Shown here: one piece after another, positions 35,139 through 59,158 of the stretch
Layout: each line of letters opens with the position of its first letter
Numbering within the stretch: position 1 is the stretch's first letter
From: an uncultured Eubacteriales bacterium
Lineage (GTDB): Bacteria; Acidobacteriota; Aminicenantia; Aminicenantales; Saccharicenantaceae
Assembly: GCA_964585685.1 (NCBI GenBank)
Contig: CAZPEP010000044.1
Coordinates: 5,458 to 69,457, forward strand
Direction of reading: 5' to 3'
Length of the DNA: 64,000 nucleotides
Made by a program: the position numbers and the translations under genes
Notes under the pieces: generated by a model
Database searches by the model: none
Seen by the model: the letters and a program-made list of their open reading frames with translations, nothing else
What the model was told of the DNA's origin: nothing

Positions 35139-35700
35139 TCAGCCTGGAAAGCCTTTCAATGGACTTGTCGACGAGCGCGCCCTGATCCCCCGCGGTGAGC
35201 CCTTTGCGGATCCTCTCCCGGGCGATCGAGGTCGCGGCTTCGGCGACGAAAGCTTTGAGCTCCCGGACGGCGGTCTTGGCCTGGGCGTCAATCTCCCTCC
35301 CGGCAAGGTCCCTGAGCCGAGCGCCCTCCTCGTCGGCCGCCCGCGCGATCCGTTCCTTCTCGAGCCGCCCGCGCGAAGCGGCCTCCGCCTTCATTCGCCC
35401 GATCTCGGCGGCGACGCCGTCCAGCCTCGTCCCGGCCGCCGCGCGCTTCTCCTCGGCCTCGACCCGGGAGGCATGAGCCTCGTCGAGGGAACGCCTGACG
35501 TCCGCCGATCGCTTTTCGAGGAGCGTCCGGACGGGCTTGTGGAGGAGAAAGCCCAGCCCGCCGAAGAGGATGAGGAAATTGACAACCTTCCCCAGGAAAT
35601 TCATGGGGGCTGCCGGGCGCCCGCCTTCCTCGGGGCTCGCCCCCATAAAGAGGAGCGCGAGGAGGATGATTGCGGCGGGTCCGATCTTCTTGAGCTTCAA
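35116..35700 (-). CDS. atpF: ATP synthase Fo subunit b
   Basis: N-terminal TM helix followed by a long charged helix (EAEEKRAAA ...). Confidence 0.75.
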   Translation of the reverse strand: MKLKKIGPAAIILLALLFMGASPEEGGRPAAPMNFLGKVVNFLILFGGLGFLLHKPVRTLLEKRSADVRRSLDEAHASRVEAEEKRAAAGTRLDGVAAEIGRMKAEAASRGRLEKERIARAADEEGARLRDLAGREIDAQAKTAVRELKAFVAEAATSIARERIRKGLTAGDQGALVDKSIERLSRLNEKSHSG

Positions 35701-36113
35701 TGCGCGACCTTCTTTTCGATGATGTCAGCCAAGCGCCCAGCTTCGCCCTCGAGCTGGTCCTTGAGCCGGCGGACCTGGTCCTCGATCTCGGCCTTAGCCT
35801 TCTCGATCCGGTCTCGGGCGTCCGCCTGGACCTCGGAGATGATTCGAGCCTTTTCCCCGAGGGCCTGGGCCTCGAGCTCCTCCCTGAGCCGTTCGGAGGA
35901 AGCCCGGGCCTCCTTAATCTCATCCTCGATCCGGCGGAGGTCCAGCTCGCCGGCCTCCAAGGCCTCCCGGGTCGCTTCTCTGTCCGCGGACTCGCTGGCT
36001 CGCCGTTTCTCCATGATCCGGCCCACAGGTTTGAAGAACACCCGGGTCAGGACGAGGACGAGGATCCAGACCAGGAGGAAGATGACGATGAACGTAAGAT
36101 CGATGGCCAACAT
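35697..36113 (-). CDS. ATP synthase Fo subunit b' (second b-type subunit)
   Basis: 138 aa. TM helix plus charged coiled helix. Precedes atpF with a 4-nt overlap. Confidence 0.7.
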   Translation of the reverse strand: MLAIDLTFIVIFLLVWILVLVLTRVFFKPVGRIMEKRRASESADREATREALEAGELDLRRIEDEIKEARASSERLREELEAQALGEKARIISEVQADARDRIEKAKAEIEDQVRRLKDQLEGEAGRLADIIEKKVAH

Positions 36114-36203: not shown

Positions 36204-37502
36204 TCAGGGCTCTCCGCGGGGAAGCGCCCTCTTGATTTCCCCGACGAGGAACAGGGAGCCTGCCGCCAGGATGGGCGTCCGCGCCCCGGCGAGGCGCTTG
36301 GCCAGTTCCAGGGCCTTCCCGACGTCCGGCTCGGTCAGAATATTGTCCCGGCGCCCCTTCCAGCAGCGGAGCACCTCCTCCGGTTCCGCCGCCCGGGCCA
36401 TCGGGACCCTCGTCAGGATGACCGTCCGGGCCAGGGGGAATAGGGGCGCGGCGATCGCCCGGATGTCCTTGTCCTTCATCGAGTCAAAGATCAGAATGAC
36501 CGGTTTCCGGACGATGTCGCGGACATAGGCGGCGAGCGCGGCGGCGCCCTCGGGGTTGTGGGCTCCGTCCAGGATGACCAGCGGCTTCAGGCCGATCCTC
36601 TCGAGGCGGCCTTCCCAATGGGTGCGGCCGACGGCCTCGACCGTCTTCCGTCGATCAAGCGGCCTCCAGACCCGGCCGAGGACCTCGGCCGCCCGAATGG
36701 TCACGGCCGCGTTCTCGCCCTGATGGAACCCCGGGAGGGACGGCTTGAATTCGTATCGGGTTCGTCCCGTGTTATATGCGAACTTGAAACCGCCCTTCGC
36801 CGGGCGGGAGGCGAAAGCCGTTCCGGGGCCGAAGACCTCGATGACGGGAGCCCGGAGTTCCCGGGCCCGCCGGCGGATCACCCTCAGGGCCGTTCCCTCG
36901 CGGACGCCGCAGACGAGCGGGACGCTTTCCTTGATGATCCCCGCCTTCTCGAAGGCGACCTCTCCCAGCGTGCGCCCCAGGTAATTCTGATGGTCCATGG
37001 ATACGGTCGTGATGACGGACAGAAGAGGCGTCACCGCGTTTGTGGCGTCGAACCTCCCGCCCATGCCGACCTCAAGGACCGCGAAGTCGACGGCTTCTTC
37101 TGCGAAATGGACCAGGGCCGCCGCCGTGAGGACCTCGAAGTACGTCGGCGGGTGGACGAGGCCCCCGGAGACAAGGAGCGCTTCGGCCCCTTTCCTGACG
37201 GCCGCAAGGGTGCGGCAGAAGTCCTTTTCGGGAATGATGTCGTCGCCGATCCGGATCCGCTCCTCGACGCTGACGAGATGGGGGGACGTGTACAGACCGG
37301 TCCGGAAGCCATGGTCTGACAGGATGCGGGCGAGCATGGCGGCGACCGACCCCTTTCCGTTCGTCCCTGCGATTAGGGCGGAAGGGAACCTCCGGTCGGG
37401 ATCCCCGAGGGACCCGAGAAGCGCCCGGATGTTTTCGAGGCCGAGCTTGATCCCGAACCGCTGGAGGGATTTCAGGTACTCGAGGCACCGCCCATGGGTC
37501 AT
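36204..37502 (-). CDS. folC: Folylpolyglutamate synthase / dihydrofolate synthase
   Basis: Mur-ligase P-loop AGTNGKGSV and FolC-type C-terminal domain. ATGA overlap with the accD stop. Confidence 0.85.
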   Translation of the reverse strand: MTHGRCLEYLKSLQRFGIKLGLENIRALLGSLGDPDRRFPSALIAGTNGKGSVAAMLARILSDHGFRTGLYTSPHLVSVEERIRIGDDIIPEKDFCRTLAAVRKGAEALLVSGGLVHPPTYFEVLTAAALVHFAEEAVDFAVLEVGMGGRFDATNAVTPLLSVITTVSMDHQNYLGRTLGEVAFEKAGIIKESVPLVCGVREGTALRVIRRRARELRAPVIEVFGPGTAFASRPAKGGFKFAYNTGRTRYEFKPSLPGFHQGENAAVTIRAAEVLGRVWRPLDRRKTVEAVGRTHWEGRLERIGLKPLVILDGAHNPEGAAALAAYVRDIVRKPVILIFDSMKDKDIRAIAAPLFPLARTVILTRVPMARAAEPEEVLRCWKGRRDNILTEPDVGKALELAKRLAGARTPILAAGSLFLVGEIKRALPRGEP

Positions 37503-38293
37503 TGGGCCCTGTTCAAGAAGAGGCGGAGCGCCCGGATGAGGTAGTCCCTAAGCTTCTTCCGGTCAACAACGTCGTCGACCATGCCGTGCTCGAGGAGGAA
37601 TTCCGACCTCTGAAACCCCTTGGGGAGCTTCTCCTTGATGGTCTGTTCGATGACCCTGGGGCCGGCGAAGCCGATCAAGGCCTGCGGCTCAGCGACGTTG
37701 ATGTCGCCCAGCATGGCGAAGCTCGCCGTCGTCCCGCCGGTCGTCGGGTCGGCCAGGACGGAGATGAAAGGGACCTTCGCCTCGCCCATCCGGGCGATCG
37801 CAGCGCTCGTCTTCATCATCTGCATCAGGGACATCATGCCTTCCTGCATTCTCATGCCGCCGGAACAGGAGACGATGATCACGGGGCGCCGCTCCTCGAC
37901 GGCCCTTTCGCAGGCACGGGCGATCTTCTCGCCGACGACCGACGCCACGCTGCCGCCCATGAAACCGAACTCCATGGCCAGGACGTAGACGGGGATGCCG
38001 CCCATCGTCCCCCGGGCCGTCTGAATGGCCTCGGAGAGGCCCGTGCGTGCCTGGCTGTCAGCGAGCCGCCGGGCGTATTTCTGGGTATCCTCGAAGCCCA
38101 GAAAATCGACCGGGAAGATGTTCTCGTCGAGCGTCTCGTACCGGCCGTCGTCGAACAGCATCCTGAGTCGCTCCGTCGAGGAGATCCGGAAGTGGAAATT
38201 GCAGGCGGGGCAGACGGAGAAATTGTCCAAAATATCCTGCTTATAGAGGATGCGCTGGCAGGAATTGCATCGGGTCCAGAGGCTGTCGTTCAT
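37499..38293 (-). CDS. accD: Acetyl-CoA carboxylase carboxyltransferase beta subunit
   Basis: N-terminal Zn-ribbon CNSCQ ... CPAC. Conserved carboxyltransferase core. Real start at MNDSLW (about 38293); the ORF-track start 38533 is over-extended. Confidence 0.9.
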   Translation of the reverse strand: MNDSLWTRCNSCQRILYKQDILDNFSVCPACNFHFRISSTERLRMLFDDGRYETLDENIFPVDFLGFEDTQKYARRLADSQARTGLSEAIQTARGTMGGIPVYVLAMEFGFMGGSVASVVGEKIARACERAVEERRPVIIVSCSGGMRMQEGMMSLMQMMKTSAAIARMGEAKVPFISVLADPTTGGTTASFAMLGDINVAEPQALIGFAGPRVIEQTIKEKLPKGFQRSEFLLEHGMVDDVVDRKKLRDYLIRALRLFLNRAQ

Positions 38294-38312
38294 GGTCCCT
38301 CTCTCGGCCGGC

Positions 38313-38810
38313 TCAGGCGGACACGTCTTTCTCTCGGACGGTTTTGTCCTTCGTCCGGGATGGCTTCGGCTTGATCTTCTGGGATAGGCCCTCGATGACA
38401 GCATCGGAGTCGGGGAGATCCTCTTCGATATCCTCCTCGTCGTGGAGGAGCTGCATGACCGAAGCGACGAACTTATCCGGGTCGACAGGCTTTTCAAAAT
38501 AGTCGGCGGCGCCGAAGGACGACAGGGCTTCATGCTTGTACTGGGGCCCCCTATAAAGCCCTGTGACGATGATCACCGGAACGCGCCCCCCCGACTCCTG
38601 GGAAATTTTCTTGGTCAGGTCGAAGCCGTGGATCTTGGGGAGGATGGCTTCCAAGACGACGAGGTCGGGCTTCTCGGACTTGAACTTATCGTAGGCCGCC
38701 TGCCCGTCCGCGGCCTTGATGATCTGGACCTTCTGCGTTTTCAGAAGCTTGACCATCGCCTCGAGGCTCACGCTGTCGTAATCGACGATGAGAACTTTTT
38801 TCCCGATCAT
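38313..38810 (-). CDS. Stand-alone receiver (REC) domain protein with Glu at the phospho-acceptor position
   Basis: MIGKKVLIVDYD ... KPDLVVLE(54)AILP ... VIIVTG ... FEKP. The canonical Asp of the LVVLD motif is Glu. Real start at MIGKK (about 38810). Confidence 0.7.
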   Translation of the reverse strand: MIGKKVLIVDYDSVSLEAMVKLLKTQKVQIIKAADGQAAYDKFKSEKPDLVVLEAILPKIHGFDLTKKISQESGGRVPVIIVTGLYRGPQYKHEALSSFGAADYFEKPVDPDKFVASVMQLLHDEEDIEEDLPDSDAVIEGLSQKIKPKPSRTKDKTVREKDVSA

Positions 38811-38963
38811 GGCGCACCGCGTCCGATTGTATTTAAATTGGTCACGGATGTCAACGAACCCCGGGGCCTGCGGCGGCAACATGACGGGTGCCAAGGGGCG
38901 TATGGCGGGAACGGGTGACATAGGATAAAATGGCCCTGGTAGACTCGGTATCGAGGGACAGGA

Positions 38964-40517
38964 ATGCACCAGGCTTCGCAAACGGGAGCGTATATTGAAG
39001 AGATCTATGGGAAGCTGCTCGGCCGCAAGCCCGATAAAGAAGGTCTGGCCTACTACACCGGCAGGCTGGATCGGGGCGAGCTGACCCTGCCGGAATTCGT
39101 ACGCCAACTGAAAAATTCAACGGAGTACTGGCTGCGCCGTTTCCCCGGGGATATCCCACGACGAACCCTGGAAAATACAGTACTGAACGACCGCGAGACC
39201 CGGGAAAAAAGAACCGTCCTACAGTCCCGGCCCTATATCTTTAACATCGACTTGATCGGGATCTGCAATATGATCCCGCCCTGCAGCATGTGTTACAATT
39301 GGAAAAACGGCGTGGGGCCGCGTCATCATCGCGGGCTGAAGATCAAAGAGATCAAGCGTTTCGGTGAGCACCTGGAGTTGGCCCACGAGGTGATCAACTG
39401 CGGCATCGGCGAGCCCCTTCTCAACCGCGAGTTGATCCCCATCCTGCAGCTTTTCTATAATTGGGGCAAACCCTTCGGCTTTAACACCAACGGCCTCGCC
39501 CTCAGCCCAGCCATGACCGAGCGTATGGTCCCGTATTTTGAGATTCTGACCATCCTCTTCTCCCTGGACGCCGCCACGGGGGAAACTTACGCTAAGGTCA
39601 GGGGCCGCTTTTTCGACCGCGTGGTGAAGAACATCGCCTATTATAGCGCCAGAAGGCGAGAAGTGGCGCCTGATGGGCTCGCCTCTAAGACCGGAATCGT
39701 TTTCATGCCCATGCGCTGTAACCGCCACGAGACGGCCGACTTTATCCGTTTAGGGGCTCGCCTGGGTGTCGACGTTGTAGAGCTCCGGGCTCTGAACCAG
39801 ATCAATGAAAACTGGGTCGTCCGTCGCGGCGACTTCACCTTTAACTACCAACAGGAGATTCTCACCCCGGCCGAACTCGAAGAGATCAGACAGGAGGCGG
39901 CGGAAGTCGCCGTCTCTGAAGGAGTTCGCCTGGATTGCCAGTATCAGGTATCCCCGGAGAGCACCTTTTTCTTTTTTATCCCGCCCCAATACCGGGATCT
40001 GGGCATCCGCTGCATCCTGCCCTGGCGTTTCATCCTGCCCTATCAGAACGGCAATACTGTCCCATGCTGCTTCATCTCTGACGATCTCGGCGACTGGCGC
40101 AAAACCGGCCTAGAAAAACTGTGGAACGGCCCGTTCATGCAGAAGCTGCGGGGCCAGATGGCCACGGGGAACCTGCCCGGTTTGTGCCGCCGTTTCCCCT
40201 CCTGCCCGGTGGTACAGGCCACGCTGTCCGAGGAAAAGCGCCTCCATTCCGGATCCGTTAGCCCGCCGGTCATTCCCCCGGCGATGGATATCTCCGCAAT
40301 GCAGCCGGCCTTGCGGATGAGGGCGTCGCAGAAGCAAACCTTTATGAAACATGCCGTCCATGCGTTGAGGAAACGCTTCAATTTGGAATTGAACCACAGC
40401 CTGGGCGAGCTGTTCGCACGCCAGGAGAAGATCAATCGCGACCTAGCCGAGGAGGTCGAACGCCTGAAGGCCGAGGTAGCGGAAGTGCGCCGGGAGAAGG
40501 ATAAACAGCAGGGCTGA
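38964..40517 (+). CDS. DUF4214 - radical SAM - SPASM-like domain protein with C-terminal coiled-coil module
   Basis: N-terminal DUF4214 signature (LLGRKPDKEGLAYYTGRLDRGELTLPEFVRQLKNSTEY). Cys cluster CNMIPPCSMC (CX5CX2C). C-terminal Cys-rich SPASM/twitch-like region (VPCCF ... CRRFPSCP). About 50-aa coiled-coil tail. Confidence 0.65.
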   Translation: MHQASQTGAYIEEIYGKLLGRKPDKEGLAYYTGRLDRGELTLPEFVRQLKNSTEYWLRRFPGDIPRRTLENTVLNDRETREKRTVLQSRPYIFNIDLIGICNMIPPCSMCYNWKNGVGPRHHRGLKIKEIKRFGEHLELAHEVINCGIGEPLLNRELIPILQLFYNWGKPFGFNTNGLALSPAMTERMVPYFEILTILFSLDAATGETYAKVRGRFFDRVVKNIAYYSARRREVAPDGLASKTGIVFMPMRCNRHETADFIRLGARLGVDVVELRALNQINENWVVRRGDFTFNYQQEILTPAELEEIRQEAAEVAVSEGVRLDCQYQVSPESTFFFFIPPQYRDLGIRCILPWRFILPYQNGNTVPCCFISDDLGDWRKTGLEKLWNGPFMQKLRGQMATGNLPGLCRRFPSCPVVQATLSEEKRLHSGSVSPPVIPPAMDISAMQPALRMRASQKQTFMKHAVHALRKRFNLELNHSLGELFARQEKINRDLAEEVERLKAEVAEVRREKDKQQG

Positions 40518-40556
40518 GCGATTGACTTTCCACGGGGCCTCTCATACAATCAGGCC

Positions 40557-40853
40557 ATGGAACGCCCGGAAATGCTTGCCCGCATTGCCGCGATCAAAGC
40601 CGAGGTCGACGCGGCCAACCCCGACATCATCCGCCGCCTGATCACCGGGCACCGCGTCTTCGTTCAGACATCGCACCGGGCCTCCCTTCCAGCCAGGCTG
40701 ATCAACAGCATCCGGCGGAAACTGCTCTTCGAGGTGGAGCGGGGGCTGGAGCCCGCGTTCGAGCGGCAGCGGGAGATCAACCTGCGCCTGCTCAAGGAGA
40801 TCGAGGCCCTTAAAGTGGCGCTGGAGCAAAAGGGGCATGGCGCCTGCGGCTGA
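40557..40853 (+). CDS. Small coiled-coil protein (98 aa) carrying the recurrent RQ-x2-IN ... EIE-x-LK module
   Basis: Same strand and operon context as flanking genes. C-terminal motif matches the tail of the preceding rSAM enzyme and the 43121..43648 protein. Confidence 0.45.
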   Translation: MERPEMLARIAAIKAEVDAANPDIIRRLITGHRVFVQTSHRASLPARLINSIRRKLLFEVERGLEPAFERQREINLRLLKEIEALKVALEQKGHGACG

Positions 40854-41925
40854 AGCTCGGGCCGAAGCCGGCCGCTCTCTGACCATCGCCGTCTGTGCGC
40901 CTCAGGTGCCTTTCGTCAGCGGCGGAGCCGAGGAGCACGTGGCCTCCCTGTGCCGGGAGTTGCGCGTCCGGGGTCACCGGGTGGAGCTGATCACCCTCCC
41001 TTACAAATGGTATCCCCGGGCCCAGTTATGGCGCAGCATGAAGATGTGGGAAATGGCCGACCTGAGCGAAGCGAACGGTCTCAAGATCGACCTGGTCATC
41101 GCCACCAAGTTTCCGTCCTATTTCGTTCACCACAGCCGCCAGGTGCTGTGGCTAATCCATCAATACCGTCAACTCTACGATCTCTACGGCACCCCGTATT
41201 CGGAATACACTCCGAACCGGTGGCGCGACCGTCGGCTCCACCGCCGCTTCGTGGCCCGCGATACAGCCGCGCTTGCCCGTTTTGCCAAACGTTTCACCAA
41301 TTCGGACAACACCCGGCAACGGATGTACAGATACAACGGGTTGGAGGCCGAGACCCTCTACCACCCCCCCAAGCTGGCCGATCGCCTTCAATGTCTGGAA
41401 TACGGCGATTACATTCTTTCGGTGGGCCGTTTGGACCAGCTCAAGAGGACCGAAGGCCTGATCCATGCTTTGGCGCGGACGAAGTCTGCGGTCCGGGCCG
41501 TGATCGCCGGAACCGGGCCCGAAGAGCACGGCCTCAAGCAGCTGACCCGTGACCTGGGCCTTACGGCGCGGGTGGAGTTTCCCGGATATGTCGATGACGA
41601 TCGTCTGATCGACCTTTATGGCCGCTGCCTGGCCGTTTTTTTCGCTCCGCTCGACGAGGATTACGGGTACGTCACCTTGGAGGCCTTCCTAGCCGCCAAA
41701 CCCGTTCTGACCTGCAGCGACTCCGGCGGGTCCTTGGAATTCGTGGCTCACGAACGGAACGGGTTCGTTCTGCCGCCCGGAGATTGGGCCGCGGCGGCTT
41801 CCTGCATCGACCGCCTCTACCGCGACCGTGAGCTCTGCCGGAGCCTGGGCGCAACCGGCAGGGCAGCGGTGAGCGCCCTCACGTGGGATCATGTGCTTAC
41901 CCGATTGCTGGAGGGAGCGGTATGA
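40837..41925 (+). CDS. Glycosyltransferase family 4
   Basis: GT-B fold. C-terminal EX7E-type region (TLEAFLAAKPVLTCSDSGGSLEFVAHERNGFV). Confidence 0.8.
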   Translation: MAPAAEARAEAGRSLTIAVCAPQVPFVSGGAEEHVASLCRELRVRGHRVELITLPYKWYPRAQLWRSMKMWEMADLSEANGLKIDLVIATKFPSYFVHHSRQVLWLIHQYRQLYDLYGTPYSEYTPNRWRDRRLHRRFVARDTAALARFAKRFTNSDNTRQRMYRYNGLEAETLYHPPKLADRLQCLEYGDYILSVGRLDQLKRTEGLIHALARTKSAVRAVIAGTGPEEHGLKQLTRDLGLTARVEFPGYVDDDRLIDLYGRCLAVFFAPLDEDYGYVTLEAFLAAKPVLTCSDSGGSLEFVAHERNGFVLPPGDWAAAASCIDRLYRDRELCRSLGATGRAAVSALTWDHVLTRLLEGAV

Positions 41926-43124
41926 AGATCGCCTGGTTCAGCCCGCTTTCCCCCGTACCGAGCGGTATCGCCGATTATAGCGAAGAGCTGCTGCCGAGCC
42001 TCGCCCGGCATGCGAGCATCGATATCTATATCGACCCCTCCTACACCCCGAGCAATGCCGGGATCGCCCGTTCTTTCTCCATCCGGCCGTTCGACCCGAG
42101 GGCTTTCAAGGCCGAGGATTATGACCGCATCGTGTATCATATGGGCAACGACTTCTTGGCCCACCGCTATATCCATGAAGCCATGCTGCGCTTTCCCGGG
42201 GTGGTAGTCCTCCACGATCTCGTGCTGATGGGCTTCTACGCCGCCCGCCAGGGTGCCGGCAGGGACTTCCCCGGCTTCATCCGCTTCCTGCAGCAGTTGT
42301 ACCCGGATAAAGCGGCTTGGATAGGAGAGCAGTGTGCCGGTCGCTACCCCTTTCCGCTCTGGGAAAGCAGGATGGCGCTGCAACTGCCGATGAACGAAGA
42401 GGTCTGCCGCCTGGCCGCGGGCGTCATCGCCCATTCCCATTACGTCATGGCACGGCTCTGGCTGCAGGACGGAAAACCCGCCGCCGTCATCCCCCACCAT
42501 GGCCACCCCACCCATCCCTTCGACCGGGAGGCGATTCGGGCCGGGCTCGGCGTGAAGCCAGAACAGATCTTCCTCGTCTCCACCGGATATGTCACCCGCA
42601 ATAAGCGCTATGGCCTGGTGTTGGACGTATTGAAGGAGCTGGGCCGGCCCGACCTGAGCTACCTGATCGTGGGCCGCGACGACGACGGCATTTTGCCGCG
42701 GATGCTGAACACCGGCCGGCCTGACGTGCAAACCCGGGGATTCGCGCCCTTGGCGGAGTTGGAACAGATGATCGCCGCCTGCGATATCGGCATAAACCTG
42801 CGCAATCCCACCATGGGCGAAAGCTCCGGATCTCTCCTGCGCATGATGAGCTACGGCCGGCCGGTCATCGTGAGCGACAGTGGTTCCTACAGCGAGATTC
42901 CCGATCATTGTGCCGTCAAGATCGATACCGGGATCGATGAAAAGGAAATGCTCAAAGATTTCATCGTTGCCCTGGCCGATGGCCCCGACTTGCGGGCCGC
43001 CCTGGGCCGCGAGGCGGCGCGCTATGCCGGCGAAACATGCGGCATCGACCGTTGTGCCGACATGTACGCAGCGTTTCTGCGCGACATGCAACCCGTGCGC
43101 CCGGCGCGGAGGGAACCTCGATGA
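41922..43124 (+). CDS. Glycosyltransferase family 4
   Basis: Start at MKIAWFS (41922; the ORF-track start is over-extended). GESSGSLLRMMSYGRPVIVSD donor-binding motif. Confidence 0.75.
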   Translation: MKIAWFSPLSPVPSGIADYSEELLPSLARHASIDIYIDPSYTPSNAGIARSFSIRPFDPRAFKAEDYDRIVYHMGNDFLAHRYIHEAMLRFPGVVVLHDLVLMGFYAARQGAGRDFPGFIRFLQQLYPDKAAWIGEQCAGRYPFPLWESRMALQLPMNEEVCRLAAGVIAHSHYVMARLWLQDGKPAAVIPHHGHPTHPFDREAIRAGLGVKPEQIFLVSTGYVTRNKRYGLVLDVLKELGRPDLSYLIVGRDDDGILPRMLNTGRPDVQTRGFAPLAELEQMIAACDIGINLRNPTMGESSGSLLRMMSYGRPVIVSDSGSYSEIPDHCAVKIDTGIDEKEMLKDFIVALADGPDLRAALGREAARYAGETCGIDRCADMYAAFLRDMQPVRPARREPR

Positions 43125-43648
43125 GCGAGATGAATCAGAACAAAACGGACATCAGCGGGAGGCTGCAGGGACTGCGCCGGGAATTCGCCCTCCGGGCGGA
43201 AGGGGCCGGAACCATCGAAGCCATTGCCGGCGGCCCGGTGGACCGCGATCTTCCGCCGGATTACTGGGGCTTTACCGATGAAGACTTGGAAAACGAACTT
43301 TGGAACCGCCTCCTCGAGTTGGACCGGGCCCCGCTTGACCCGGCTCAGGCCATGGATATCCCGCCCGGCAGCCTTTCACCGGCCAAGCACGGTCTATCGG
43401 GAAAGATCAAAGGCGGATTCAAGAACCTTCTGCTGCAGCTGGCCAAGCCCCTGGTGCGTATTACGCTGGCGAGGCAAGGCAATCTGAACCGCCAACTCGA
43501 ACACCTCCAATTCATCCAGTTCCTGGCGGTCAAGCAACTGCGTCAGCGCCTGCAGCGGCTGGAACGTGAGAATCGCGATCTGCGCTTCCGCTTGGCCGAA
43601 CTGGAAATCGAGAATGCCCCCGATGGAGAGACCTCCGGCCATGAGTGA
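43121..43648 (+). CDS. Coiled-coil protein (about 175 aa) with C-terminal recurrent module
   Basis: Start MSEMNQ overlaps the preceding GT4 stop as ATGA. C-terminal LARQGNLNRQLEHLQ ... RLERENRDLRFRLAELE coiled coil. Confidence 0.5.
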   Translation: MSEMNQNKTDISGRLQGLRREFALRAEGAGTIEAIAGGPVDRDLPPDYWGFTDEDLENELWNRLLELDRAPLDPAQAMDIPPGSLSPAKHGLSGKIKGGFKNLLLQLAKPLVRITLARQGNLNRQLEHLQFIQFLAVKQLRQRLQRLERENRDLRFRLAELEIENAPDGETSGHE

Positions 43649-45032
43649 GCGTTCCCCGGCCGAACGGCCGGCCCGACATGCTCCGGCAGGGCGGGTTTGG
43701 GAAAAGGCATTTCTGAAGCGGATCGCCGAACAGGGACAGGCGGGAACCTGGGAATACGCGCGGGCCATCACCGAGTGCCTGCAAACTTCGGTGGCGAGCT
43801 CCGACCTGTTGGACCGGATCGGCAACGCCATTGCCGATCGCGCAGGTCTTCGCACCGCCATCAATACCGTCGACCTCTGCCAGCTGCTGCTCGGACTGAG
43901 AAAGCCGCGCATCGCCATCTACGACCACACCTGGCAGTTCATCGGCGGGGCGCAGAAATACGGCGCCACGCTGGCCGAAGCCTTGCAGGATATGGGCGAG
44001 ATCACCTTGATCGGAAATCGCCCCTTCTCCACCGAGCAGCTGTCCGCCTGGTACCGGCTGGATCTCAAGGATTGCTCCAGCCGCCTGATAGCCCTCCCCT
44101 TTTTCGAGGAAAAGGGCGGTGATTATATCGATCCCGCCGAGATCGTCTCGCGCGCCATGGCCAATCCGTTTCATGCCGTCAGCCGGGCGACTCTGGGCTA
44201 CGACCTCTTCATCAACAATGGCATGTTGGAAATGGTCTTGCCCCTGGCCACCCGCTCTATCTTCATCACTCACTTCCCGGAACGGCGGGCGCGCAGCTAT
44301 TTCTACGTGGACCGCTACGACCGCGTTGTGTGCAACAGCCGCTATACCGCCGGCTGGATCGAAAAGCGTTGGGGGCTCGAACCCCATGTTCAAATCTATC
44401 CCCCCGTCGACATGCCGGGGCCGCGCCCTGAAAACAAGGAGCCGATCATCCTGTCGGCAGCGCGCTTCGATCCCGGGGGGAACAAGCAACAGCTCGACAT
44501 GATCCGCGTTCTTCAAGCGCTCATCCGCCGTCACGCCCGGGCCAGCCGCGGCTGGCGCTTGATCCTTGCCGGCGGCAGCCATGGCGATAACCCATATCTC
44601 CATCAGGTACAACAGTTCCTGACGGACAACCCTGGTCTGCCGGTGGAGCTGCGGGTGAACATCTCGGCGGCCGAGCTTCAGGAATTGTATCGCCGGGCCT
44701 CCCTGTTCTGGCATTTCTGCGGTCTGGGACAAAGCGACCCGGCCCTTGTGGAGCATTTCGGCATGACCGTTGCCGAGGCTATGCAGAGCGGCTGCATTCC
44801 CCTGGTCTTCGATGGCGGCGGCATGCGCGAGATCGTCCGATCCGCAGAGAATGGCTATCTTTTCTCAAGCCTCGTCGAATTGGTCGGCGTCACCGCCAGG
44901 CTGTTCGACAGGCCCGCGTTGCGTGCCAACCTGGCCGAGGCGGCCTGGAACGCCGGACGGGCTTTCGCTAAAGAGATTTTCGCCGGACGCGTGCGGGCCC
45001 TGGTCCGGGAGCTGCTGGCCCCGGCGCCATAA
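43641..45032 (+). CDS. Glycosyltransferase family 4
   Basis: Start MSERSP overlaps the previous stop as ATGA. EHFGMTVAEAMQSGCIPLVFDGGG motif. Confidence 0.75.
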   Translation: MSERSPAERPARHAPAGRVWEKAFLKRIAEQGQAGTWEYARAITECLQTSVASSDLLDRIGNAIADRAGLRTAINTVDLCQLLLGLRKPRIAIYDHTWQFIGGAQKYGATLAEALQDMGEITLIGNRPFSTEQLSAWYRLDLKDCSSRLIALPFFEEKGGDYIDPAEIVSRAMANPFHAVSRATLGYDLFINNGMLEMVLPLATRSIFITHFPERRARSYFYVDRYDRVVCNSRYTAGWIEKRWGLEPHVQIYPPVDMPGPRPENKEPIILSAARFDPGGNKQQLDMIRVLQALIRRHARASRGWRLILAGGSHGDNPYLHQVQQFLTDNPGLPVELRVNISAAELQELYRRASLFWHFCGLGQSDPALVEHFGMTVAEAMQSGCIPLVFDGGGMREIVRSAENGYLFSSLVELVGVTARLFDRPALRANLAEAAWNAGRAFAKEIFAGRVRALVRELLAPAP

Positions 45033-45114
45033 GCTACCCAAGGACACCCCTCTTTCAAGGCTCTGGCCTTTTTAGGATGGACTGGAGGCGGCTGTTTGTG
45101 CTATATTTTATAAG

Positions 45115-46083
45115 ATGAACATAACAGGACGGATAGAGATTTCCTTGGTCATCCCCGTCTATAACGAGGAGGAAAGCCTCCCCGAGCTTTATGAACAGCT
45201 CGGCCGGGTCTGCCCCGGCCTGGGGAAACATTACGAGATCATATTTGTCGACGACGGGAGCACCGATGGCTCTTTCGAGGTCCTGACGCGCCTCCGGGCG
45301 GGAGACCCGCGGGTCAAGATCATCCGGTTCCGGAGGAACTTCGGCCAGACGGCCGCCCTGGCCGCAGGGTTCGACAACGCCCGGGGGGAGGTCATCGTCA
45401 CCCTGGACGCCGACCTCCAGAACGATCCCGCCGATATCGCCGCCCTCATCGGGAAGATCGACGAAGGCTTCGACATCGTCTCGGGTTGGAGGAAAAACCG
45501 GAAGGACCGGTTCCTGTCCCGGAGACTCCCCTCCATCCTGGCGAACCGCCTCATCTCCCGATTCACGGGGGTCAAGCTTCACGATTACGGCTGCACGCTC
45601 AAGGCCTTCCGTAAGGAAGTCGTCAAGAACATCAGCCTCTACGGCGAGCTTCACCGGTTCATCCCGGCCATCGCCAGCACGATGGGCGTCTCCATCGCCG
45701 AGATCGAGGTCCGCCACCGGCCCCGCCTGAAGGGCAAGTCCAAGTACAATATCATGAGGACCCCCAAGGTCCTCCTGGACCTCCTAACGGTCAAGTTCCT
45801 CCTGAGCTATTCGACCCGCCCCCTGCAGATCTTCGGCCTGTTCGGCATGGCCGGCGGCCTGGCGGGCGGGGTCATGGGCCTCTGGCTTTCGTACGAGAGG
45901 CTCGTCCTCAAGCACAGTATCGCCAACCGGCCCCTGCTCCTCCTGGCTGTTCTGCTTGTCGTCATCGGCATCCAGTTCATCACTCTCGGCCTCCTGGCCG
46001 AGATCATGGTCCGCGCCTACCACGAATCCTCCGCTAAGAAGATCTACCACATCAAGGAAACCGTCGAATCCGACCGGCCATGA
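45115..46083 (+). CDS. GT2 polyprenyl-phosphate glycosyltransferase (ArnC/GtrB-like) with two C-terminal TM helices
   Basis: SLVIPVYNEEESL, DDGSTDGS and DADLQNDP (DXD) motifs. C-terminal membrane anchor. Preceded by an AT-rich promoter-like gap (45033..45114). Confidence 0.85.
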   Translation: MNITGRIEISLVIPVYNEEESLPELYEQLGRVCPGLGKHYEIIFVDDGSTDGSFEVLTRLRAGDPRVKIIRFRRNFGQTAALAAGFDNARGEVIVTLDADLQNDPADIAALIGKIDEGFDIVSGWRKNRKDRFLSRRLPSILANRLISRFTGVKLHDYGCTLKAFRKEVVKNISLYGELHRFIPAIASTMGVSIAEIEVRHRPRLKGKSKYNIMRTPKVLLDLLTVKFLLSYSTRPLQIFGLFGMAGGLAGGVMGLWLSYERLVLKHSIANRPLLLLAVLLVVIGIQFITLGLLAEIMVRAYHESSAKKIYHIKETVESDRP

Positions 46084-47246
46084 AGATCCTCATGCTCGCC
46101 CCCGAGCCGTTCTTCCAGCCTCGGGGAACCCCCATAAGCGTCTATTTCCGGAACGCAGCGCTCACCGCCCTCGGCCATGAAGTCGACCTCGTCACCTACC
46201 CCCTGGGCGAGGACGTAAAGATGGCCAATCTAAGGATCTTCCGCTTGCCGAACTTCCTCTGCCTCGGAAAGATCAAGATTGGCCCCTCTGCCGCCAAAGT
46301 CCCGCTCGACGTGGCCCTCACCCTGAAGGCCCTCGGCCTGATCCTCCGTTCGCGCTATGACCTCGTCTACTCCCACGAGGAAGCGGCTTTCCCCGGCATC
46401 CTCCTGAGCAAGCTCGCCCGTATTCCCCATCTCTACGACATGCACTCGAGCCTGCCCCAGCAGCTCGAAAACTTCGAGTTCACGAGATCGCCCCTGCTCA
46501 AACGGCTCTTCACCCGCATGGAGCGATTCATTCTCAGGAACTCGCACGCTGTCATCGTGATCTGCCCCGACCTCATGAACAAGGTCCGGGCCGAGGGCTT
46601 CGGAGACAAGACCATCCTCATCGAGAACGTCCTCGATTTCCCCGCCCCTGAAACCGGCCCGGGAGAGTTCGAGCTCATGAAGCGCGAACTGGCCCCCGGC
46701 GGCGAAAAGATCATCCTTTACGCCGGGAACTTCGGGCCTTATCAAGGTGTGTCGCTGCTCGTCGAAGCCGCGGCCCATATCCGGGAGAAGGCTATCCTCG
46801 TCCTTCTCGGCGGGAGCCCGGCCGAACGGGCGGAACTCGAGACCAAAGCCGCCGGGCTCGGCGTTGCGGACCGGGTCGTCGTCCTCGACAGGGTCGCCCC
46901 CACCCGCGTCCCGCTGTTCGTGAAGGCCGCCGACGTCCTCGTCTCGCCTAGGATGACGGGCACGAACACGCCCCTGAAGATTTATTCCTTCCTCAAGTCG
47001 GGCAAGCCGCTCGTCGCGACGCGGCTCTATACACACACCCAGGTCCTAGACGACACGATCTCCGTCCTGGTCGAGGCGACGCCGGAGGCCATGGCCGCAG
47101 GGTTGGATTTCGCGCTGACGGACCCGGAAGCGGGGCGGCGGGCCGCGGCGGCCGCGGCGCTCGCGAAGCGGGAATACACGTTCGCGGCCTACCGGGACAG
47201 GATCGTTCGATGTCTCGGGATGGCCATGGAGAACTTCGGGCGGTAG
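46080..47246 (+). CDS. Glycosyltransferase family 4
   Basis: GT-B fold; ILYAGNFGPYQG ... SPRMTGTNTPLKIYSFLKSGKPLVAT. Confidence 0.8.
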   Translation: MKILMLAPEPFFQPRGTPISVYFRNAALTALGHEVDLVTYPLGEDVKMANLRIFRLPNFLCLGKIKIGPSAAKVPLDVALTLKALGLILRSRYDLVYSHEEAAFPGILLSKLARIPHLYDMHSSLPQQLENFEFTRSPLLKRLFTRMERFILRNSHAVIVICPDLMNKVRAEGFGDKTILIENVLDFPAPETGPGEFELMKRELAPGGEKIILYAGNFGPYQGVSLLVEAAAHIREKAILVLLGGSPAERAELETKAAGLGVADRVVVLDRVAPTRVPLFVKAADVLVSPRMTGTNTPLKIYSFLKSGKPLVATRLYTHTQVLDDTISVLVEATPEAMAAGLDFALTDPEAGRRAAAAAALAKREYTFAAYRDRIVRCLGMAMENFGR

Positions 47247-47256
47247 GAGCCTTCGG

Positions 47257-48225
47257 ATGCAGGCATTCGTCACGGGCGCGTCCGGATTCATCGGGGCCCA
47301 TCTCGTCCGCCGCCTGGCGGCGGGCGGTTGGAAGGTCCGCGTTCTTGTCCATACGAGTCCCGTTTCTCTCGTCCCGGGCCTCGAGACCGTCTACGGCGAT
47401 ATCCGAGACCCCGGCTCCTGGAAGGAAGCCCTCGCGGGGACGAACGTCCTCTTCCATTTGGCGGCGGCCCTCGGCTCTTCCCGCCTCTCCGGGGACGAGT
47501 TCCTGAAGATCAACGCCCTGGGAACGGAAGCCCTCCTCGGGGCGGCTCAGGAAACCGGCGTCGGAAAGACCGTCCACGTCAGTTCGGCCGGCGTCATCGG
47601 TGCGGTCAAGCCCGGGGCGATCGCAGATGAAGGCATGTCTCCGAACCCCCGGAACGACTACGACCGGAGCAAGGTCGAGGCGGAACGGATCGCCATGGAC
47701 TTCGCGGGGCGCGGGATGGACCTCGTCATCGCCCGGCCCGGCTGGGTTTACGGACCCGGTGACCACCGGACCTTAAAGATCATCAAGGCCGTCGCCGACC
47801 GCCGGTTCGCCCTCGTCGCGCCGGACCACGGCCGGCAAACCCCCGTCTTCATCGGCGATCTTGTCGACGGCCTCCTGCTCGCGGCCGAAAAAGGAAAACG
47901 CGGGGAGATCTATCACCTGACGGGAGACGAGGTGCTCACGGTCCGCCGCATGGCCGCGGTCCTCGCAGACGCCTGCGGCGTCCCGGTCCCGAAGCTGCGC
48001 ATCCCCGTGCTTCCGGCGAAGCTCGCCGCCTGGGCGCTCGAAAAGGCCTTCGCGCCATTCGGGAGGGAAGCCCCGCTCAACCGGTCGAGGCTTGCCTTCT
48101 TCATCCACCCCAAAGCTCTGTCGAACGAAAAGGCCCGGCGCGAGCTCGGCTTCCGGCCGGAAGTCGATTTCCGGACGGGGATGGCCCGGGCGGTCGCCTG
48201 GTACCGGCAGCAGGGCTGGCTATAG
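47257..48225 (+). CDS. NAD-dependent epimerase/dehydratase (extended SDR)
   Basis: VTGASGFIGAHL Rossmann motif. YxxxK catalytic pair (YDRSK). Confidence 0.85.
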   Translation: MQAFVTGASGFIGAHLVRRLAAGGWKVRVLVHTSPVSLVPGLETVYGDIRDPGSWKEALAGTNVLFHLAAALGSSRLSGDEFLKINALGTEALLGAAQETGVGKTVHVSSAGVIGAVKPGAIADEGMSPNPRNDYDRSKVEAERIAMDFAGRGMDLVIARPGWVYGPGDHRTLKIIKAVADRRFALVAPDHGRQTPVFIGDLVDGLLLAAEKGKRGEIYHLTGDEVLTVRRMAAVLADACGVPVPKLRIPVLPAKLAAWALEKAFAPFGREAPLNRSRLAFFIHPKALSNEKARRELGFRPEVDFRTGMARAVAWYRQQGWL

Positions 48226-48383
48226 GCCGACCCGGTCCCGTCTCTAGTTCTTTTCACGGAAAAGAAGACCTCTTTTTCATCTGAATTTCCAATCTACCAA
48301 CCGAATCGAACAAGATATGAACACCACGGGGATTTGGGAGCATCAAACTAAAGTAAGGTTAGAGGCCTAGGATTCGGAGCTCG

Positions 48384-49139
48384 TCAGGCCCCGGGGTCGC
48401 GGCGGTCATGGATCTTGAGTTGGCGCACACCGCGGGCGAAGGAAAATTCGGGAACGGGCCCCGTGACCACCGACCCGGCTCCGACGACGCTGCTCCGGCC
48501 GACGGTGACGCCGTCGAGGACGAGGACGCCCGCCCCGAGCCAAACGTCGTCGTCGATCCGGATCCCGTTCTTCGAGAGCGACGGCTGGAACATGACGGGC
48601 TTCGCGAGGTCCGCAAAACTGTGGTTGCCGCCGGCCACGAGGTAGCAATTTCCGGCCAGGATGCAGTATTTCCCGAGGCGCACCTCGGTCTCCGAGAGGA
48701 TCGTGCAGTTGGCAGAGACGTTGCAGTAATCCCCCAAGTATATGGACCCTTCCTTGCAACTCAGGATGGCGTTCCGGCCGATGTAGGCGTTCTCCCCGAT
48801 GACGATGCCCTCGTTCGCCGAGCCCTTGGCGTCGAGGACCGCGCGGTCGTCGACGAATGTCCCAGCGCCGACACTGATCTTGTGGGGATGGCGGATAGTG
48901 ATCCCCCTGCCGAAGACGCACCCTTTCCCGACCGACTTGAAGAGGCACGGATAGAAGACCTTCCGGAGGAAATAGCCGAAGGCGCCCGGGGCGTCGGACA
49001 CGCACGACGTGACGAACTCATACTTGAGGAGGCTCCAGATTCCCTTCCGGCCAGGGAAGATCTCCATGTATTTAGCGGTCAGGGACCGGTCCCCTGCCAG
49101 GAGCTCCTTATGGATGCTGCCGCGGAATTCTTCGTTCAC
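48384..49139 (-). CDS. Hexapeptide-repeat (left-handed beta-helix) acetyltransferase, WcaF-like
   Basis: Repeated [LIV]-G-x-x-x-x hexapeptides (IGENAYIGRNAILS ...). Encoded antisense to the surrounding plus-strand GT operon. Confidence 0.8.
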   Translation of the reverse strand: MNEEFRGSIHKELLAGDRSLTAKYMEIFPGRKGIWSLLKYEFVTSCVSDAPGAFGYFLRKVFYPCLFKSVGKGCVFGRGITIRHPHKISVGAGTFVDDRAVLDAKGSANEGIVIGENAYIGRNAILSCKEGSIYLGDYCNVSANCTILSETEVRLGKYCILAGNCYLVAGGNHSFADLAKPVMFQPSLSKNGIRIDDDVWLGAGVLVLDGVTVGRSSVVGAGSVVTGPVPEFSFARGVRQLKIHDRRDPGA

Positions 49140-49191
49140 GCTCCACCTCTGTTCGTGATCCCGGCATCATTATAACACGGGGCCGAGCCGA

Positions 49192-50352
49192 TTGTCTTCG
49201 CAGGGGAAATATGGCATAAATAGGGGCGGAAACGCCGCCATGACGAGCCCCATCAACAACGACTGCGCCCATTTCCGCGGGGATAAGCCCTGCGGGTTCA
49301 AGCGTCTCTGCGGGGATTGTCCCGAATACGACCCTCTCGGCGCGCGGACGAAGGTCCTCGTCCTCAAGTGCCGGGCCCAGGGAGACGTCCTGAGGACGAC
49401 CGCCCTCCTGCCGGGTCTAAAGCGGAAGTACCCAAGGGGCCACGTCACCTGGCTCGTGGACGGCGAGAGCATCGATCTCCTGGTGGGCAATCCGCTCGTG
49501 GACGCCGTCCTCCCCTTCGGGTTGGAAGCGACCCTGCCGCTCGAGGTTCGGGAATTCGACGTCCTCGTCTGCCTCGATAAGGAACCGGGGATAGCGGCCC
49601 TCGCGACGAAGGTCCGGGCCGTACGAAAGTACGGGTTCGGGATGAACGCCCATGGGAACCTCTCGGCCTTCAACGATGCCGCGGCCTATGCCCTGCGGCT
49701 GGGGATCGACGACGACCTCAAGTACCGGACGAACCTGAAGACCTACCAGGAGATCGCGGCCGAGGCGGCGGAGGTCGAATACGCACGGGACGAATACGTC
49801 TACGAGCTCGGGGACGAAGAAAAGCGGAAGGCCCGGGAGTTCATGAAGACGCATGGCATCGACGCCTCCCGGCCGACCGTCGGGCTCAACACGGGCGCGG
49901 GAACGAAATTCGAGACCAAGCAATGGCCGGCGGAGCACTATCGGGAGCTCGTCCGCGGCCTGGCCGATGAGCTCGGCGCGAACGTATTCCTCCTTGGCGG
50001 ACCAAGGGAAGAGGCGCTTAACACGACCATCACCGCGGGGGCTCCGCCTCGGGTCTACAACACCGGAAACAGCCACTCTCTTCCCGACTTCGCCGGCTTT
50101 ATCTCCCTGATGGACGTCCTCGTCACCTCGGATACGCTGGGCATGCACCTGGCCATCGCCTTGAAAAAGAAAGTCGTTGCCCTGTTCGGCCCGACCTGCC
50201 CTCAGGAGATCGACCTCTATGATCGCGGCGTGAAGCTCTTCACGGGGGCCGCGTGCGCTCCGTGCTACAAACAGACCTGCCCGGATGCCGTCTGCATGAA
50301 GGGGATCCGGCCGGACCGGGTCCTCGAAGAGGTCGGGCGCCTTATCGCCTGA
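49192..50352 (+). CDS. Glycosyltransferase family 9 (heptosyltransferase-like) with Cys-rich N- and C-terminal extensions
   Basis: GT9 core (KVLVLKCRAQGDVLRTTALLPGLK ... TSDTLGMHLAIAL). N-terminal CX8CX5CX2C cluster. C-terminal CAPCYKQTCPDAVC. Start probably MTSPINN (about 49240). Confidence 0.75.
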   Translation: MSSQGKYGINRGGNAAMTSPINNDCAHFRGDKPCGFKRLCGDCPEYDPLGARTKVLVLKCRAQGDVLRTTALLPGLKRKYPRGHVTWLVDGESIDLLVGNPLVDAVLPFGLEATLPLEVREFDVLVCLDKEPGIAALATKVRAVRKYGFGMNAHGNLSAFNDAAAYALRLGIDDDLKYRTNLKTYQEIAAEAAEVEYARDEYVYELGDEEKRKAREFMKTHGIDASRPTVGLNTGAGTKFETKQWPAEHYRELVRGLADELGANVFLLGGPREEALNTTITAGAPPRVYNTGNSHSLPDFAGFISLMDVLVTSDTLGMHLAIALKKKVVALFGPTCPQEIDLYDRGVKLFTGAACAPCYKQTCPDAVCMKGIRPDRVLEEVGRLIA

Positions 50353-50357
50353 ACGTC

Positions 50358-51119
50358 ATGGCCGACGAACGCCGTCGCATCGTCGTGATGATCCCGACCT
50401 ACAACGAGGCGGAGAACATCGCCGGCCTCGTGCGCGAGATCCTTTCCCTACCGATGGGCGCCGACCTGAGCGTCCTTGTCGTCGACGACGACTCCCCGGA
50501 CGGGACCGGGCGCATCGCGAAAGCGCTGGGCCGGGAGGACGGCCATGTCCATGCCCTCATCCGGACGAAGCGGAGGGGCCGGGGGGCCGCCGGGATTGAC
50601 GGGTTCAAGGCCGCCCTGGCCCTCGCACCGGACTTCGTCGTCGAGATGGACGGGGACTTCTCCCACCCTCCTCGGCACATCCCGGAACTGGTCGCGGCCA
50701 TGGACCGGTATGATGTCGTCCTGGGTTCGCGCTTCGTTCCGGGAGGCCGGGATGCAGACCGGGGCCTCGTCCGCAGGTTCATCACCCTCCTTGTCCGCCT
50801 ATTCATCCGGAGGAAGTTCCGTTTCCAGGTGAAGGACGTTTCCTCGGGCTTCCGCTGTTTTCGGAGGGAGGTCCTCGAAGCCGTCGACCTCGACGACTGC
50901 ATCTCGGTCGGCCCGTCCGTCGTCCTCGAGGTCCTGTACAAGGCTTCCCTCCGGGGCTTCCGGCTCGGCGAGATTCCCATCGTCTTTGTCGACCGGAAGA
51001 AAGGGAAGACCAAGCTCGATCTCCTCACGCTCGTCGAGACCCTGGTAACGGCCCTAAGGATTGAGCGCCGCTTCCGGCCGGTCCCCGGGTCCTCCCGGGA
51101 GGGCCCTGGTCAGACATGA
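50358..51119 (+). CDS. GT2 polyprenyl-phosphate mannose/glucose synthase-like (DPM1-like, no membrane anchor)
   Basis: VVMIPTYNEAENI, DDDSPDGT and EMDGDFSHPP motifs. Start at MADERRR (50358). Confidence 0.8.
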   Translation: MADERRRIVVMIPTYNEAENIAGLVREILSLPMGADLSVLVVDDDSPDGTGRIAKALGREDGHVHALIRTKRRGRGAAGIDGFKAALALAPDFVVEMDGDFSHPPRHIPELVAAMDRYDVVLGSRFVPGGRDADRGLVRRFITLLVRLFIRRKFRFQVKDVSSGFRCFRREVLEAVDLDDCISVGPSVVLEVLYKASLRGFRLGEIPIVFVDRKKGKTKLDLLTLVETLVTALRIERRFRPVPGSSREGPGQT

Positions 51120-57354: not shown

Positions 57355-57381
57355 AGTGCCCTCCTGCCCTCCGCCAATCCT

Positions 57382-57524
57382 AAATCCCCATTTTTTCAAA
57401 AATCCCCCAATAGTCCCCCTTTTTCAAAGGGGGATACTGATGAGGTGTCCACCTTTTTTATAGGGGTTAGGGGGGACTTAGTAGCTACCCCCCTTTGTAA
57501 AAGGGGGGCTGGGGGGATTTAATT
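57382..57524. repeat. Nested G5/C5 palindromic element with two GC hairpins, overlapping the HD-GYP stop codon
   Basis: Hairpin 1: TCCCCC-TTTTTCAAA-GGGGGA (57414..57434). Hairpin 2: CCCCCC-TTTGTAAAA-GGGGGG (57488..57508). Outer inverted repeats AAATCCCCC (57400..57408) / GGGGGGATTT (57511..57520) and AGTCCCCC (57412..57419) / GGGGGACT (57471..57478). Confidence 0.5.
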
Positions 57525-58292: not shown

Positions 58293-58566
58293 CTCACGTT
58301 TCCCTTTTTTCTCCGGGAGCGCTCAAAAGGCTCCGGCGCTCAAGCAGGGGCCCCAGCCGGCGATCGGGCTGGTTTCGACGAGTTCGAAGCCGTCCTCCCT
58401 GAGCCGTGTCTCGATGTAAGAGCAGAATTCCTGTTCGTCCCTGATCACAACACAGTCGCGTTCCCGGGGGCCTTTCGAAAATTCACTTTCGATCATGGGC
58501 ATCCGTCCTTTCATCGAGCAATAGGTTAGTCGGGGGATAGGGCGGAAAATTGACGGAAATCCAGGC

Positions 58567-58595
58567 TTGTCAACTCATTGGGCGCCCTTTATAAT
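58567..58595 (+). promoter_or_regulatory. Sigma-70 consensus promoter TTGTCA-17-TATAAT upstream of the second ECF sigma gene
   Basis: Exact hexamers with 17-nt spacer. Lies inside the over-extended ORF-track start, so the real start codon is downstream (TTG about 58629). Confidence 0.55.
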
Positions 58596-59102: not shown

Positions 59103-59158
59103 GCCTTTCTTCCATTTTCCCCTCTCCCGGACGACTAAAGGGTTGAAATCAAGGAAAG

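Follow-up and report, generated by a model that had tools for sequence, protein, structure and literature searches.

The receiver gene and its acceptor column

The stretch of DNA analyzed here (hereafter the window) comprises 64,000 nucleotides of contig CAZPEP010000044.1 from an uncultured bacterium of the Aminicenantales, in the phylum Acidobacteriota, and encodes on its reverse strand a small receiver protein, the product of a gene referred to below as REC, in which glutamate occupies the column of the phospho-accepting aspartate. The gene, its promoter and the features of its product are as follows.

38313..38810 (-): REC, Glu-type pseudo-receiver gene, product of 165 amino acids, stop codon included; delimited by an ATG-start open reading frame (ORF), Pfam and homologues
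38442..38798 (-): residues 5-123, receiver (beta-alpha)5 fold, predicted by AlphaFold2 as five strand/helix pairs
38778..38780 (-): codon 11, TAC; in the alignments its Tyr stands where CheY has Asp13, the second residue of the acidic pair and a metal ligand
38649..38651 (-): codon 54, read directly as GAA; the RR468 and CheY alignments place its Glu in the phospho-acceptor column
38373..38417 (-): residues 132-146, conserved C-terminal tail motif LPDSDAVIEGLSQKI, with L132, P133 and L142 invariant in 65 orthologues
38826..38854 (-): sigma-70-type promoter TTGACA-17-TACAAT, matching the consensus at 11 of 12 positions, its -10 box ending 15 nt before the ATG

Residues 6-118 of the protein match profile positions 1-110 of the 111 in Pfam Response_reg (PF00072) with E=1.2e-21 and 77.4 bits, well above the gathering cut-off of 30.2 bits, which makes the protein a member of this family consisting of a single receiver domain. 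Searches of the protein collection recovered 966 homologues at E<=1e-5; the best 120 of these are 62-93% identical to the window protein, mostly 155-165 amino acids long and, where named, assigned to Aminicenantales or Acidobacteriota. No DNA-binding or other output domain follows the receiver, as Pfam detects Response_reg only and the modeled tail comprises 45 residues with one helix. Likewise, no NCBIfam model reaches its cut-off, and the matches to regulator models are confined to the receiver and score far short of theirs. By sequence and model the protein would therefore not qualify as a transcriptional response regulator of the OmpR/PhoB, NarL or similar types, and the missing output domain leaves the JGI label 'DNA-binding response OmpR family regulator' without justification. 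A longer ORF of 264 amino acids opening with a TTG at 39107 was rejected, because the conserved promoter falls within its N-terminal extension; it also departs from the usual length of the orthologues and from their start, M..KK(I/V)LIVDYD. Neither the gene nor its leader matched an Rfam element.

A phmmer search against PDB sequences gave Thermotoga maritima RR468 as the top match (E~6e-17, ~35% identity), and its alignment sets 'PDLVVLEAILP' of the window protein against 'PDLIVLDIMMP', thereby equating Glu54 with RR468 Asp53. A BLASTP alignment with Escherichia coli CheY pairs D12 with Asp10, D13 with Tyr11, D57 with Glu54, T87 with Thr83, Y106 with Tyr104 and K109 with Lys107. Together with the Pfam match, these alignments uphold several points of a preliminary description of this DNA, namely that Glu stands at the column of CheY Asp57, that the Thr of VIIVTG and the Lys of FEKP are the conserved receiver positions, and that the ORF encodes a natural stand-alone receiver devoid of the acceptor Asp. 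Its claim that the acidic pair is present as DYD did not hold: the second, Mg2+-binding position is taken by Tyr11, and Asp12 lies one position beyond it. The Tyr11 column contains Tyr in 119 of 121 aligned sequences, and Tyr or Phe across the wider Glu-type clade described below, while Thr83 at the end of beta4 and Lys107 at the end of beta5 are invariant among the orthologues.

Thus, of the features of a functional receiver the protein has the Thr and the Lys, and has neither the acceptor Asp nor two consecutive acidic residues. The residues associated with switching are otherwise kept: Thr83, Gly84 (T+1), Tyr104 (K-3), Lys107, Pro108, Pro58 (D+4) and Gly62 (D+8). On these residues the protein is assigned to the pseudo-receivers or aspartate-less receivers (PsR and ALR, respectively), which are characterized by loss of the acceptor Asp and, here, of the second acidic residue as well. 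With only three of the five catalytic residues in place (the acceptor Asp having given way to Glu54 and the metal-binding Asp to Tyr11), it is almost certainly not phosphorylatable at the canonical site. We found no histidine kinase among the neighboring genes or the scanned large ORFs of the window, in agreement with the earlier description of a receiver without a nearby kinase.

Glu54 is invariant in all 121 sequences of the alignment of the best 120 homologues with the query, in which the invariant or near-invariant motifs are DYD, LEAILPKIHG, VTGLYRGPQY(K/R) and ADYFEKP. To survey species we scanned one genome from each, and found orthologues in 47 genomes (L003-L049), nearly all labeled Aminicenantes, Saccharicenans or Acidobacteriota. 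A pattern search read codon 54 in 51 orthologous loci, covering 46 of the species genomes, as 29 GAG and 22 GAA, all Glu; the remaining species locus (L048) escaped the pattern search and, on direct reading, also encodes Glu. Three Chloroflexi loci recovered by the same scan are only 31-34% identical and fall outside the Glu clade, and the one that was read (L052) has the ordinary DD...D arrangement. An invariant Glu encoded by both GAA and GAG is the pattern expected of purifying selection on the amino acid. The preliminary description had raised a single-nucleotide error at this codon as a caveat; it located the codon correctly at 38649..38651 and misread it as GAG where the sequence has GAA. 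Such an error is excluded by the constancy of Glu with both synonymous codons across species. Further, the ORF is intact and the promoter conserved, and no point in favor of an artefact was found, so that the chance of either a one-base error or a decaying pseudogene is practically negligible.

An AlphaFold2 model built on 65 orthologues (mean pLDDT 80) adopts the receiver fold, and Foldseek gave RR468, DivK and Spo0F as its top matches, with a TM-score to target of 0.84-0.88. The Foldseek matches were generic receivers, with no specific pseudo-receiver neighbor among them; the pseudo-receiver of FrzS (2i6f) appeared at rank 40. Beyond alpha5 the model predicts an extra helix over residues 135-146, which takes in most of LPDSDAVIEGLSQKI and is followed by a disordered basic tail.

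The downstream accD cluster and the divergent junction

The genes on the two sides of REC that bear on its function are listed below.

37499..38293 (-): accD, acetyl-CoA carboxylase carboxyltransferase beta, 19 nt 3' of the REC stop (TIGR00515, E=3.5e-113)
36204..37502 (-): folC, overlapping the accD stop (TIGR01499, E=9e-107)
35697..36113 (-): atpF', the first of the ATP synthase genes following folC (Pfam ATP-synt_B)
38964..51100, end approximate (+): divergent glycan island with genes for a radical SAM/SPASM protein, family 4 glycosyltransferases (GT4), a GT2, an epimerase and a GT9 (Pfam)
38964..40517 (+): within the island, the radical SAM/SPASM protein with an N-terminal DUF4214, shared only with L005
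40557..40853 (+): within the island, an ORF of 98 amino acids, shared only with L005
51116..51907: ksgA, just beyond the glycan genes
55003..57354: ftsK, beyond the glycan genes, confirmed by Pfam

The order REC-accD-folC on one strand is found in all 47 species loci, down to 52% receiver identity, and is followed by atpF' wherever the contig reaches that far; two additional loci (L001 and L053) have the same REC-accD-folC-atp order. The gap between REC and accD has a median of 38 nt and does not exceed 60 nt in 41 of the 47 loci. In the window the mechanically delimited accD ORF (37499..38533, -) begins at 38533 and so overlaps the 3' end of REC in another frame; the real accD start is the ATG at 38293, since the TIGR00515 match begins at residue 2. 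The promoter is likewise a recurrent feature: a TTGnnn-16..18-TAnnnT pattern lies within 76 nt upstream of the ATG in 45 of 49 orthologous loci, with mostly similar spacing and divergent flanks. The interval between the -10 box and the REC ATG (38811..38825) contains no Shine-Dalgarno sequence, and we infer a leader of about 8 nt and a near-leaderless start. Gene order and promoter position together show that REC is the gene nearest the promoter in a conserved housekeeping cluster, REC-accD-folC-ATP synthase, and it is probably co-transcribed with accD and folC.

The other side of REC is of variable content. Our first synteny probes, the radical SAM, GT4a and 98-residue ORF genes, detected glycan genes upstream in only 1 of 47 species, which proved an underestimate. 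A trio of GT2, GT4 and epimerase genes (45115..48225 in the window) lies divergently upstream of REC in 14 species loci with 52-91% identity, and also in L053 and L054; counting L005, glycan genes are found upstream of REC in ~15 of the 47 species. L005 alone shares with the window the radical SAM/SPASM protein, the 98-residue ORF and three further GT4 genes. In ~30 of the 47 species REC diverges from ksgA and ftsK, and the nearest 6 kb are free of glycan genes. As judged from gene order, the stable backbone consists of ftsK-ksgA and, transcribed away from it, REC-accD-folC-atp, and the glycan genes are a variable-content island inserted at the junction and dispensable for the retention of REC. 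Since the loci with the trio span 52-91% identity, the adjacency of REC and these genes is probably old, and the island itself may be old at this junction.

Farther upstream, the window (55003..63887) and L001 (1..7653) have, apparently in the same order, a block of genes for FtsK, an HD-domain protein, a sigma-70 factor, PSP1, HolB (DNA polymerase III delta') and UvrA. In the window Pfam confirms ftsK and uvrA only, the genes between them having been assigned from ORF sizes and order; a shared order of this block would support the interpretation of the glycan genes as an island. At the opposite end, the window encodes a protein of 1002 amino acids (1170..4178, -) that is rich in TPR repeats and ends in a CHAT (caspase-like) domain.

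The Glu-type clade and its TonB_C paralogues

We searched for more distant relatives among 1.84 billion cluster representatives. Below ~60% identity the nearest relatives of the window protein are not ordinary receivers; they form ~65 representative clusters united by one signature, D-[YF]-[DE] ... [LM]-E-[AP]-x-[LM]-x-K-x-H-G-F ... T-G-x-Y-[RK]-x3-Y-[KR]-x-E-A ... [YF]-F-E-K-P, which the window protein matches with DYD, LEAILPKIHGF, TGLYRGPQYKHEA and YFEKP. All of these clusters have Glu at the acceptor column, whereas the multi-receiver hybrid kinases in the same match list have Asp. Within the clade conservation peaks in the beta3-alpha3 loop (mean 0.82), is high in the other active-site loops too and is lowest in alpha1 and alpha5 (0.43). 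The clade-specific residues on the active-site face lie in the beta3-alpha3 loop, as EA(I/M)LPKxHGF, and in the beta4-alpha4 region, as TGxY(R/K)xxxY(K/R)xEA. This pattern of conservation shows Glu54 and these clade-specific residues to be held by selection.

A Pfam scan of 66 clade members detected a C-terminal TonB_C domain in 43, a Ser/Thr protein kinase domain in 6 and a PilZ domain in 1. Further, in 47 of 50 long members the receiver is separated from TonB_C by one strongly hydrophobic segment, which makes the Glu-type receiver the N-terminal, cytoplasmic head of a protein that crosses the membrane once; the TonB_C end would be periplasmic. The TonB_C paralogues are 40-50% identical to the window protein, display the same invariant signature and bear names of the form 'TonB family protein [Candidatus Aminicenantales / Saccharicenans / Acidobacteriota]'. 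They make up a large family (P0127-P0269) in which the Glu-type pseudo-receiver leads, through a linker, one transmembrane helix and a second, Pro-rich linker, to TonB_C; in some members a Ser/Thr kinase is inserted. One chromosome of 4,309,361 bp carries both a paralogue (P0357, at 2.21 Mb) and the stand-alone orthologue (at 0.91 Mb), and a second such pair (P0315 and stand-alone P0005) apparently lies on one contig, as P0315 is on a contig of 1,030,592 bp and the longest contig with P0005 is equally long. Hence, the stand-alone form and the membrane-bound TonB_C paralogues coexist in the same genomes.

The two forms differ in what follows the receiver. The paralogues continue through a linker and one transmembrane helix to the periplasmic TonB_C domain, and some include a Ser/Thr kinase, whereas the window protein ends after its 45-residue tail and is, unlike them, the product of an accD-operon gene. 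We considered a tail motif, ELPDSDAVIEGL, as common to the TonB_C paralogues and rejected it, as a pattern search found it in only 4 of 66 members; most of these paralogues instead carry (D/E)IDxxLxxTLxEFGL after the receiver. At three loci of receiver-TonB_C paralogues (L055, L056 and L058) neither ExbB/ExbD genes nor other informative neighbors were found. A conserved ORF of 81-82 amino acids followed by LysE occurs at these loci, with an extra ORF of 193 amino acids between the two in L056. Another clade member, P0123 (311 amino acids), consists of a Glu-type pseudo-receiver fused to a canonical Asp-containing receiver, and recalls the receiver/pseudo-receiver pair of PleD. The literature searched contained no relevant paper on receiver-TonB fusions or Aminicenantes response regulators.

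Possible modes of action and known pseudo-receivers

Aspartate-less receivers account for ~4% of all receiver domains, and the residue most often found in place of the Asp is Glu, at 26% (Maule et al. 2015, PMC4395418; PMC12632262). Their second acidic residue is usually lost, being non-acidic in ~80% of PsRs, and Acidobacteria are among the ALR-richest phyla (PMC4395418, PMC12632262). The switching of bacterial pseudo-receivers, which constitute several percent of receiver domains, is for the most part poorly understood (Bourret et al. 2025, PMC12632262); the modes described include constitutive activity set by expression, dimerization (also with other proteins), protein-protein contact and ligand binding (PMC12632262). 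Aspartate-less receivers with Glu are thus already well documented, and the window protein is an uncharacterized further example. A natural Asp-to-Glu receiver alone is unsurprising, and the appealing link to the glycan locus does not hold. Less ordinary are the clade with a receiver, transmembrane and TonB_C architecture and the fixed position of REC before accD, folC and the ATP synthase genes, though by themselves these reveal no new mechanism.

The interpretation that we favor, with slightly more confidence than doubt, is that the window protein is a soluble single-domain pseudo-receiver of the Glu-type clade that acts as a protein-interaction module independent of phosphorylation and controlled by its expression level. 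It would not be phosphorylated by a kinase, and would be held in one fixed, possibly active-like, conformation. It would work by contacting other proteins, with the conserved active-site face, the dimer surface usual in receivers or both as the interface. In the absence of a phosphoryl switch, its activity would be set by the amount made, via co-expression with core lipid, folate and energy genes. Receiver domains often pair through alpha4-beta5-alpha5. The likeliest partners would be other domains of the receiver type, with the Glu-type heads of the TonB-like paralogues foremost, and a second possibility would be the products of REC's own operon. Several points weigh against this interpretation. 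The full switch apparatus and the small T+1 residue are more receiver-like than is typical of a PsR, so that its state may be regulated and not fixed. The most conserved element, the beta3-alpha3 loop, is poorly modeled (pLDDT<50 at residues 57-60). Finally, gene order inside one class, the Aminicenantia, may partly reflect shared descent; set against this objection, the upstream side of REC has been rearranged repeatedly and the downstream side has not.

The retained switch residues would also suit a sensor of a small ligand or metal, in which the remodeled acidic pocket binds a metabolite or nucleotide, perhaps reporting energy or lipid status, and thereby switches the domain. The pocket and its invariant neighbors would comprise Asp10, Tyr11, Asp12, Glu54, Lys59, His61, Tyr86, Arg87, Tyr91 and Lys92, the invariant aromatic and basic residues peculiar to the clade are grouped in the loops of the former active site, and the mechanism is documented for pseudo-receivers in ShkA with c-di-GMP and in KaiA and CikA with quinones (PMC12632262). 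However, none of the tools used predicted a ligand, the protein shares no more than the common fold with known ligand-binding pseudo-receivers, and the beta3-alpha3 loop is modeled at low confidence; we regard this possibility as unlikely, if well worth bearing in mind. A broader scheme, which we think rather improbable, would make the Glu-type receiver a distinct, undescribed Acidobacteriota lineage serving mainly as the cytoplasmic control head of membrane-spanning, TonB-like energy transducers and Hanks kinases, with the stand-alone Aminicenantes copy as a highly expressed soluble housekeeping partner, produced alongside acetyl-CoA carboxylase, FolC and the ATP synthase, that pairs with these heads or binds a metabolite at the remodeled pocket. 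If true, it would couple energy and lipid status to envelope transport or remodeling. The six clade members in which a Pkinase domain directly follows the receiver raise the idea that this domain is a substrate or docking module in Hanks-type Ser/Thr kinase signaling, for which phosphorylation of pseudo-receivers on Ser/Thr in plant pseudo-response regulators and GlnR gives a precedent (PMC12632262). Most clade members have no kinase domain, though, no kinase gene was found near stand-alone REC among its neighbors or the scanned ORFs of the window, and no conserved Ser/Thr site was identified besides the catalytic Thr83, and we accord the idea little credence.

The preliminary description had offered a different role, that of a constitutively 'on' receiver, with Glu mimicking the phosphorylated state, which regulates the divergent glycan locus without a cognate kinase. 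The divergence was correct, in that REC faces glycosyltransferase genes in the window, and the GT2-GT4-epimerase trio recurs upstream in 14 further species loci and in L053 and L054. Regulation of that locus is another matter, and its direct control is unlikely because the glycan genes are facultative and the window protein has no DNA-binding domain, nor any other output domain. REC is kept beside ksgA and ftsK in the ~30 of 47 species with no glycan genes within 6 kb, and its link to accD-folC is universal in the survey. Moreover, Asp-to-Glu is an unreliable phosphomimic, effective in some receivers such as NtrC and not by itself sufficient in CheY, PhoB or Spo0A (PMC4395418). This proposal we consider improbable. 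More doubtful still, indeed very unlikely, is that the protein is a working receiver phosphorylated by an unlinked histidine kinase on Glu54 or on the neighboring Asp10 or Asp12. It does keep Thr83, Lys107, Asp10, the small T+1 residue and Tyr104 for Y-T coupling, and Asp12 might partly stand in for the missing metal ligand; yet the whole clade is missing the acceptor Asp as well as the direct Mg2+ ligand, and no modification of Glu is known to contribute to bacterial signaling (PMC4395418). The interest of the system lies in the unusual main architecture of the Glu-type clade (receiver, transmembrane helix and TonB_C) combined with a stand-alone copy heading a core metabolic operon, which together offer a tractable setting for asking what a 'frozen' receiver does.

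In its class features the window protein resembles other ALRs and PsRs: it has the PF00072 fold, Glu at the acceptor position, a non-acidic second residue, a retained first acidic residue and Lys, and it is an orphan. Compared with the average PsR it keeps more of the switch apparatus (the Thr, a small T+1, Pro at D+4, Gly at D+8 and Tyr at K-3), and while most characterized PsRs are transcription factors, its receiver stands alone, followed by a short conserved tail. The OmpR/PhoB-type regulator ChxR of Chlamydia trachomatis likewise has a natural Glu at the acceptor site and an activity independent of phosphorylation (PMC3960148, PMC4395418), as the window protein probably has; this Glu is not needed for ChxR activity (PMC4395418). 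ChxR differs in being a constitutive dimeric transcription factor with a winged-helix DNA-binding domain, where the window protein has no output domain, and we detected no specific sequence relationship between the two. FrzS of Myxococcus xanthus, matched through 2gkg at E=3.3e-7, provides a parallel for a pseudo-receiver used purely as an interaction or localization module. It differs in having Ala at the acceptor position and a long coiled-coil and in binding SgmX via alpha3-beta4-alpha4, and it is only ~25% identical to the window protein, with no clade motifs in common. The best matches in sequence and fold are RR468, DivK of Caulobacter, Spo0F of Bacillus and CheY, which have the stand-alone size of the window protein and function through protein-protein contacts; in contrast to it, they possess the acceptor Asp together with a complete acidic pair, and cognate kinases phosphorylate them.

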